DNA of 35,309 nt from a virus. Lineage: Duplodnaviria > Heunggongvirae > Uroviricota > Caudoviricetes. Made by a program: the position numbers and the translations under genes. Positions within the stretch are counted from its first letter, which is position 1. Every line of letters begins with the position of its first letter. The notes below the pieces were generated by a model, which saw only the letters and a program-made list of their open reading frames with translations, was not told where the DNA came from and made no database searches. Positions 17,228-17,940 of the stretch are shown here, piece by piece. The stretch lies in IMG/VR virus record IMGVR_UViG_2526164613_000023, one strand, 5' to 3'.

Positions 17228-17551
17228 GTGAGCACCATTCAAACAGGGATCACAGAGCAGGTTATTGCGTGGCTCTTTGACCACCTGCCAACGGTGTATG
17301 CAGTAGGCGCGGCGGTCAGCATTTCCGCGCTGATGAGTCTTTATGACGGACGAACACTGGTTCAGACCGTAACGGGATCGCTGGCGTGCGGCGTTCTTGC
17401 CATGGCCGTGGCCGGGTCGTTGCGCTTCTTCGGGTTTCCTGAAGATGCCGTGACGTTTATCGGCGCATCAATCGGTTTTATGGGTGCAGAGAAAGCACGC
17501 GACAAGGTTATTGCGGCCTTTAATCGCAGGGTGAAGGAGAAGGACGAATGA
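17228..17551 (+). CDS. Putative holin (GTG start)
   Basis: About 108 aa with hydrophobic helices, at the holin position between X and the endolysin; start codon uncertain. Confidence 0.5.
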   Translation: MSTIQTGITEQVIAWLFDHLPTVYAVGAAVSISALMSLYDGRTLVQTVTGSLACGVLAMAVAGSLRFFGFPEDAVTFIGASIGFMGAEKARDKVIAAFNRRVKEKDE

Positions 17552-17940
17552 GCAACACATTTAAATTCAGCAGCCGGAGCGAAAAGAATTTGCAGGGCGT
17601 AAATCCTGATCTGGTGAAAGTGACACGACGGGCACTGGAAATCTCGGAAGTGGATTTTGGTATCACCTAAGGGTTGCGCAGCCGTTACCGCCAGAAGCAA
17701 CTGGTGGCCACGGGTAAGAGCCAGACCATGAACAGCCGCCACCTTACGGGGCATGCCGTGGATGTTGTGGCTTATATCGGCAGCCAGGTGTCATGGGAAT
17801 GGCCGCTGTACGAAAAAATCGCAGCAGCATTCAGACAGGCCAGCCGGGAACTGAATATTCCGGTGGAATGGGGCGGCGACTGGAAGACCCTGAAAGACGG
17901 ACCGCATTTTCAGTTACCACACGGAGCCTATCCGGCATGA
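17548..17940 (+). pseudogene. Endolysin, peptidase M15-type (L-alanyl-D-glutamate peptidase-like), interrupted by an in-frame TAA at codon 41
   Basis: ATG at 17548 translates MSNTFKFSSRSEKNLQGVNPDLVKVTRRALEISEVDFGIT, then TAA at 17668-17670, then the same frame continues GLRSRYRQKQL…SRHLTGHAVDV…GPHF to 17940; homologues (e.g. T5 endolysin, as recalled) have Q/E at the stop position. Confidence 0.65.

Follow-up and report, generated by a model that had tools for sequence, protein, structure and literature searches.

The lysis cassette and its interrupted endolysin gene

The window, by which we mean the whole stretch of 35,309 nucleotides that was analyzed, covers an entire P88-like prophage (Xuanwuvirus, P2-type) whose insertion site lies between btuC and ihfA, and we found in it the integrase, replication, head, lysis and tail modules of that class. 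The lysis cassette is made up of the following features:

17228-17551, plus strand: holin/antiholin, intact (PHROG 126, 1.7e-35); its stop overlaps the endolysin start (ATGA 17548-17551)
17548-17940, plus strand: endolysin pseudogene, M15/LAS L-Ala-D-Glu endopeptidase, orthologue of P88 gp31 with one internal stop (ORF, profiles and homologues)
17548-17670, plus strand: 40-aa N-terminal fragment, ending at the position of ChiX Glu44 (ChiX alignment)
17668-17670, plus strand: ochre TAA in place of GAA (Glu41), through a G-to-T transversion at 17668 (homologue comparison)
17674-17940, plus strand: in-frame downstream remnant, with the PF13539 domain and H65, D72, D117 and H120 (ORF, Pfam and ChiX alignment)
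17937-18344, plus strand: i-spanin (LysB/Rz-like, DUF2570), intact (PHROG 214, 2e-39); its start overlaps the endolysin stop (ATGA 17937-17940)
18298-18495, plus strand: o-spanin (LysC/Rz1-like lipoprotein), intact (PHROG 3001, 1.9e-25)

The endolysin gene thus sits between the holin and the spanins, the location of this gene in a lysis cassette, and the o-spanin gene is annotated as lysC in CB9615 and received a Pfam LysC call in L006 and L008. The endolysin frame opens at ATG 17548 and runs for 40 sense codons to the TAA at 17668-17670, beyond which it stays open as far as the TGA at 17938-17940, giving 131 codons in total by ORF inspection. A preliminary description of this DNA had reported an in-frame TAA after 40 codons, with the same frame continuing through His/Asp-containing segments, and both points were borne out, as H65, D72, D117 and H120 are all encoded downstream of the stop. 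It had also held that homologues have Gln or Glu at the interrupted codon, and had proposed a comparison with orthologous endolysins. In that comparison, position 17668 is a G in the three close DNA homologues, P88, phage 520873 and CB9615, all of which read GAA (Glu41) at 17668-17670, and Glu also occupies the aligned position in the three best PDB matches (ChiX 5OPZ, 23RI and 8Q2G); Glu is the only residue at this codon in the homologues examined, and the suggestion of Gln falls away. When the stop is replaced by Glu, the protein becomes identical to the endolysins of P88, phage 520873 and E. coli O55:H7 CB9615, and a synonymous A/C at 17625 is the sole other difference common to all three DNA homologues. 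Past the TAA, the remnant measures 88 codons from TTG 17674 and lacks the N-terminal third or so of the fold. What gene callers place downstream of the TAA is a 70-aa ORF from ATG 17728 (Met61), or a 60-aa ATG ORF, while the 88-aa ORF from the TTG was not found on record as a called gene anywhere. RefSeq already carries the locus (E3156_RS12075 in NZ_CP038389) as 'M15 family metallopeptidase, pseudo, internal stop', and the interruption reveals no new mechanism: both the endolysin family and the type of prophage are well known, and the allele is a genuine pseudogene made by a nonsense codon.

The assignment to the M15-type endolysins made in the preliminary description holds. With the stop read as Glu (130 aa), residues 58-123 match PF13539 (Peptidase_M15_4) with 46 bits against a gathering cutoff of 25, and the protein matches the PHROG 465 'endolysin' family (5e-77), Serratia marcescens ChiX (5OPZ, E 2.5e-48, residues 5-130) and the T5 endolysin (2MXZ, 8.8e-23), with 23RI and 8Q2G also matched among the solved LAS-family endopeptidases. 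The gene encodes the zinc triad of the M15/LAS enzymes, His-x6-Asp...His, and the catalytic Asp, which precedes the last His by three residues. What the gene does not have is an uninterrupted frame covering the whole M15/LAS fold. Judged from its sequence, it is a pseudogene of this family rather than a functional member, because the TAA breaks the frame at codon 41.

The structure and mutagenesis of ChiX have been published, with roles for H68, D75, H123, D120 and R47 (PMC5778951), and the alignment of the two proteins gives the following correspondences, of which all but the last draw on that publication as well:

ChiX His68, Asp75 and His123 (zinc ligands): His65, Asp72 and His120 here
ChiX Asp120 (essential for activity): Asp117 here
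ChiX Arg47 (implicated in substrate binding): Arg44 here
ChiX Gly45 (its carbonyl positions His68): Gly42 here
ChiX Glu44 (aligned position only): stop codon 41 here

In the alignment, the 40-aa product ends before Gly42, Arg44, all the zinc ligands and the catalytic Asp117. In the ChiX fold, helices α3 and α4 lie between β1 and β2, and His68 is on α4 (PMC5778951); going by this description, the 40-aa fragment would hold little beyond the N-terminal helices. From the alignment we infer that the enzyme activity is lost, because every zinc ligand and the catalytic Asp are encoded downstream of the stop. The preliminary description had offered a lysis-defective prophage as one of two alternatives, and the position of the stop ahead of all these residues (PMC5778951) supports this as a prediction, namely that host lysis by the prophage should fail. 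Rho-dependent polarity, acting to some degree on lysB, lysC, R and S, could also result from the 270 nt that go untranslated.

The prophage beyond the lysis genes

The closest match to the window is the chromosome of E. coli O55:H7 DEC5B (NZ_CP038389), at 99.997% identity. The only difference between the two over 35.3 kb is a homopolymer, which is A6 in the window (3308-3313) and A7 in NZ_CP038389; the A6 form frameshifts a small early gene, turning a 92-aa P88 gp05-like protein into a 42-aa product. Exactly this 42-aa product occurs in 164 index blocks, often on contigs longer than 1 Mb, and the A run must therefore either be prone to sequencing errors or vary genuinely by slippage. Compared with P88 (NC_026014), the window is collinear and 95-97% identical over 4409-9070, 10268-22794 and 26340-33180. 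A search of the window ends for att-site direct repeats of at least 18 nt found none. CB9615, another O55:H7 strain, carries a P88-like prophage at the same btuC-ihfA site, and that prophage also has an invertible tail-fibre module. Because its late genes are only about 97-98% identical to those in the window, and its early region and cargo differ, DEC5B and CB9615 hold differently assembled or recombined prophages at one site.

No internal stop was found in 18 genes from 8759 to 24087. We considered a second lesion in gpD, of which RefSeq reports 263 aa only, and rejected it, as the full ORF of 366 codons is open:

32079-33179, plus strand: gpD, full length at 366 codons and equal in length to P88 gp51 (ORF)

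In both DEC5B and CB9615, RefSeq gives gpD as 263-266 aa together with a tiny 'partial' pseudogene on the opposite strand, and the short form is probably an annotation artefact. A damaged integrase was likewise rejected; the gene is intact, including the region of the catalytic Tyr, and only its last few residues differ from CB9615. In the tail-fibre gene H, three tandem copies occur at a spacing of 132 nt (22456-22949), and they are 83-85% identical over a 230-nt reference copy.

The derepression gene (Pfam PF25738; P88 gp14), which is intact in CB9615, is represented here by its last ~13 codons only, at ~4409-4451. About 1.9 kb of P88 sequence, from the MarR-like gene to ~4409-4451, is absent from the window, and the record of phage 520873 appears to be arranged alike, with ~140 nt between the genes that flank the derepression site. 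The prophage may not be inducible as P88 is, and if the PF25738 protein mediates derepression, as the name of the family suggests, it would seldom enter lytic growth. Under the same condition, selection on the lysis genes would be relaxed, because lytic growth would be rare.

Further genes of note, the cargo genes among them, are these:

193-642, minus strand: 149-aa predicted coiled-coil protein, between the btuC-side flank and the integrase
9302-10108, minus strand: DUF3800 protein, PADLOC candidate defence family PDC-M04A (2.6e-35)
24084-24986, plus strand: 300-aa macro-domain protein (PF01661, 8e-19), with a weak DarG-like PADLOC match
25617-26189, minus strand: hexapeptide-repeat acetyltransferase
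33449-34516, minus strand: protein of 355 aa in the gpD-ogr interval, with a DUF3800 match below threshold

The 149-aa protein gave only weak matches of coiled-coil type in Pfam and PADLOC, and CB9615 has a different gene in its place. The PDC-M04A/DUF3800 gene is flanked by the partition genes on one side and the portal gene on the other; P88 and CB9615 have different content at this site, and both also carry other genes at the gpD-ogr site. The macro-domain gene, which overlaps the stop of the tail-fibre gene H, is followed by the tail-fibre assembly gene, and the acetyltransferase locus is where P88 has an invertible tail-fibre segment and its invertase.

Distribution of the TAA allele

We searched for the allele with a 41-nt megablast probe centred on the T at 17668, which matches only records carrying T. 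Among 5,426 complete E. coli genomes, 1,069 of which have the endolysin gene, the probe matched DEC5B only. Across the wider set of assemblies, precisely this 40-aa product occurs on 29 contigs and in 66 index blocks, and it is called as a gene product in the DEC5B draft (EHV32094.1, AIFR01000023), in GCA_002465565.1 and GCA_007648535.1, in the Logan assemblies SRR19768703, SRR10386562 and ERR3062202, and in ENA CAD55 records, where it lies on a 5.38-Mb chromosome. In GCA_011835915.1 and GCA_024611705.1 the endolysin is uncalled, yet the fetched DNA has the TAA codon, which the closed DEC5B chromosome (CP038389) carries as well. The stop is therefore present in the draft and the closed genome of DEC5B and in at least seven other assemblies or read sets. 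All the carriers have the same prophage with the same cargo. Over 15-20 kb they show 0, 1, 4 or 9 SNPs relative to the window and not a single indel; they make up at least three prophage haplotypes, and some sets of SNPs are common to independent data sets. Moreover, 40 index blocks contain the DEC5B-type i-spanin protein, and on each of the 24 contigs that were read, the endolysin is either broken into two calls or uncalled; the TAA was found in three of three fetched loci carrying this i-spanin. Because it recurs across independent assemblies and at least three haplotypes, the stop is a genuine allele, inherited within a small lineage.

The intact and otherwise identical 130-aa protein is present on at least 1,000 contigs. 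Among the complete genomes we found no near-identical prophage with an intact endolysin by which the mutation could be dated, the next best match being 98.5% identical over 11.7 kb. A truncated endolysin of 79 aa (WP_024009189.1, ending in ...AYIGS) occurs in other E. coli assemblies, on 15 contigs, one of 4.04 Mb; because this form is independent of the TAA allele, other P88-like prophages must also acquire endolysin knock-outs from time to time, if infrequently.

Origin of the allele and comparison with known systems

We hold it to be highly probable that the G-to-T change arose once and was inherited vertically, that the endolysin was lost with it, and that the loss represents early prophage decay fixed by drift. 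A single transversion (GAA to TAA, Glu41 to stop) would have occurred in a P88-like prophage at btuC/ihfA, and vertical inheritance would have carried it through a small lineage of E. coli to which O55:H7 DEC5B belongs. Translation should halt after 40 residues, leaving the cell with no active peptidoglycan L-Ala-D-Glu endopeptidase. Were the prophage derepressed, replication, particle assembly and holin firing would still proceed and the holin would kill the cell; with the murein uncut there would be no burst, the virions would stay trapped inside, and the prophage would be a dead end as a phage. Triggering of a holin is lethal even without an endolysin, and because the holin is intact here, the stop would block the release of virions rather than the death of the host. 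Most likely, the allele originated as a loss of function that drift brought to fixation, the prophage itself probably entering lytic growth only seldom.

The substitutions within the TAA clade number 7 nonsynonymous, 4 synonymous and 1 intergenic, against 43 nonsynonymous and 152 synonymous differences between this prophage and that of CB9615 in the same late genes (Fisher p=0.005 for the comparison with 7:4). The 7:4 ratio fits a relaxed constraint after the knock-out, although it is suggestive only, as n=11 is small and very recent bacterial divergence would be expected to yield the same excess whatever the constraint. Drift is our preference over selection, short of a demonstration, because the prophage shows almost no further decay.

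Like a domesticated defective prophage, this one has lost a function that lytic propagation cannot do without, to which the stop in the endolysin and the remnant of the derepression gene both testify. We nevertheless consider it unlikely that the knock-out was selected, as an adaptive domestication that disarms the prophage and keeps its PDC-M04A/DUF3800, macro-domain and acetyltransferase cargo. Selection would suit the persistence of the allele through some diversification with every other checked gene intact, the presence of candidate defence cargo (PDC-M04A) at a variable site, and the existence of at least one other independent truncation allele in the endolysin family, the 79-aa form. 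However, with an intact holin an induced cell would still die, so there would be no direct fitness gain for the carrier; the allele is rare, with its 29 contigs against at least 1,000 intact; the 7:4 ratio points to a relaxed rather than a maintained constraint on the phage genes; and the carriers diverge by no more than 0.06%, which is too little to show long-term retention. Neither did we find recurrent convergent loss of the endolysin, one other truncation allele having been seen. The preliminary description had offered domestication as a step that keeps defence cargo without lethal induction. This proposal found no support, given the intact holin, the rarity of the allele, its restriction to one lineage and the lack of any sign of selection, and the avoidance of lethal induction fails in particular because induction would remain fatal to the cell as long as the holin is intact. 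That selected disarming has led an O55:H7-like lineage to keep an otherwise complete P88-like prophage as a non-releasing element, which serves its host through its cargo, immunity included, seems to us quite unlikely; if it were true, the intact holin would act only as a suicide module.

It is very unlikely that the gene still functions, whether by readthrough of the stop, by suppression or by re-initiation that yields an active C-terminal fragment. The frame offers 89 further open codons that retain all the catalytic residues, and possible points of restart exist at a TTG 4 nt past the stop and at the ATG of Met61, which opens the 70-aa ORF with PF13539. Of the E. coli stop codons, UAA leaks least, and a suppressor tRNA in the prophage was rejected, as our search for tRNA genes in the window found none and no suppressor gene lies within it. 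Products of a restart at TTG 17674 or ATG 17728 would be missing all that precedes ChiX Leu46, about the initial third of the fold, and those from the ATG would also miss Gly42 and Arg44 (ChiX Gly45 and Arg47), which support the active site (PMC5778951). A programmed recoding of the stop codon is unsupported, because the window has no tRNA gene and the stop is unconserved in homologues outside the TAA lineage. The other explanation given in the preliminary description, a sequencing or assembly error in an intact gene whose true codon is GAA, is effectively refuted and has next to no likelihood: the T is in one complete genome only and a likely homopolymer discrepancy lies elsewhere in the window (the A6/A7 run), but the same TAA is found in both DEC5B assemblies, in the seven or more others and in at least three haplotypes, and a substitution is not a typical long-read error. 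Also against an error, the paper on closed O55:H7 genomes, in which the endolysin gene goes unmentioned, used PacBio and Illumina for its newly sequenced strains (PMC9413875).

Because the stop codon is real and inherited, the prophage should be scored as 'lysis-defective', and not as 'intact', in inventories of O55:H7 and related strains. The TAA allele could serve as a lineage marker, and the locus offers a clean natural case of the first step of prophage decay, with one nonsense codon in an otherwise complete element. Beyond good annotation its significance is small, as that of an ordinary pseudogene.

Among known systems, P88 provides the direct counterpart. Its gp31 (NC_026014; Xuanwuvirus, Peduoviridae) is a 130-aa protein that is the same except for codon 41, GAA in P88 and TAA here, and its DNA differs from the gene in the window at 3 of 393 nt; the two prophages have the same holin-endolysin-spanin order, with overlapping ATGA junctions. 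P88 is inducible with mitomycin C and forms plaques (PMC5285337), and because it does so with the same endolysin minus the stop, the intact members of this family belong to a working phage. ChiX (Serratia marcescens, 5OPZ/5OQ1) resembles the gene described here in being a LAS-family protein with full-length homology and conserved key residues, but it works together with a holin in the secretion of chitinase and not in phage release, and has Glu44 where this gene has its stop. The amber mutants of P2 gene K and lambda R are like this allele in having a stop that cuts the endolysin short while holin and spanins remain intact, and the phenotype to be expected is that the host dies without lysis and the virions are trapped. 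Those are laboratory mutants in suppressor hosts, whereas here we have a natural allele fixed in a wild lineage; the P2 K protein, moreover, is of the lysozyme type, a different enzyme family from M15. Finally, the prophage is like other decaying enterobacterial prophages in that a single point mutation has inactivated an essential lytic gene of an otherwise complete element, but this copy is without large deletions or IS insertions, and represents a very early decay, with one nonsense codon and an absent derepression gene.
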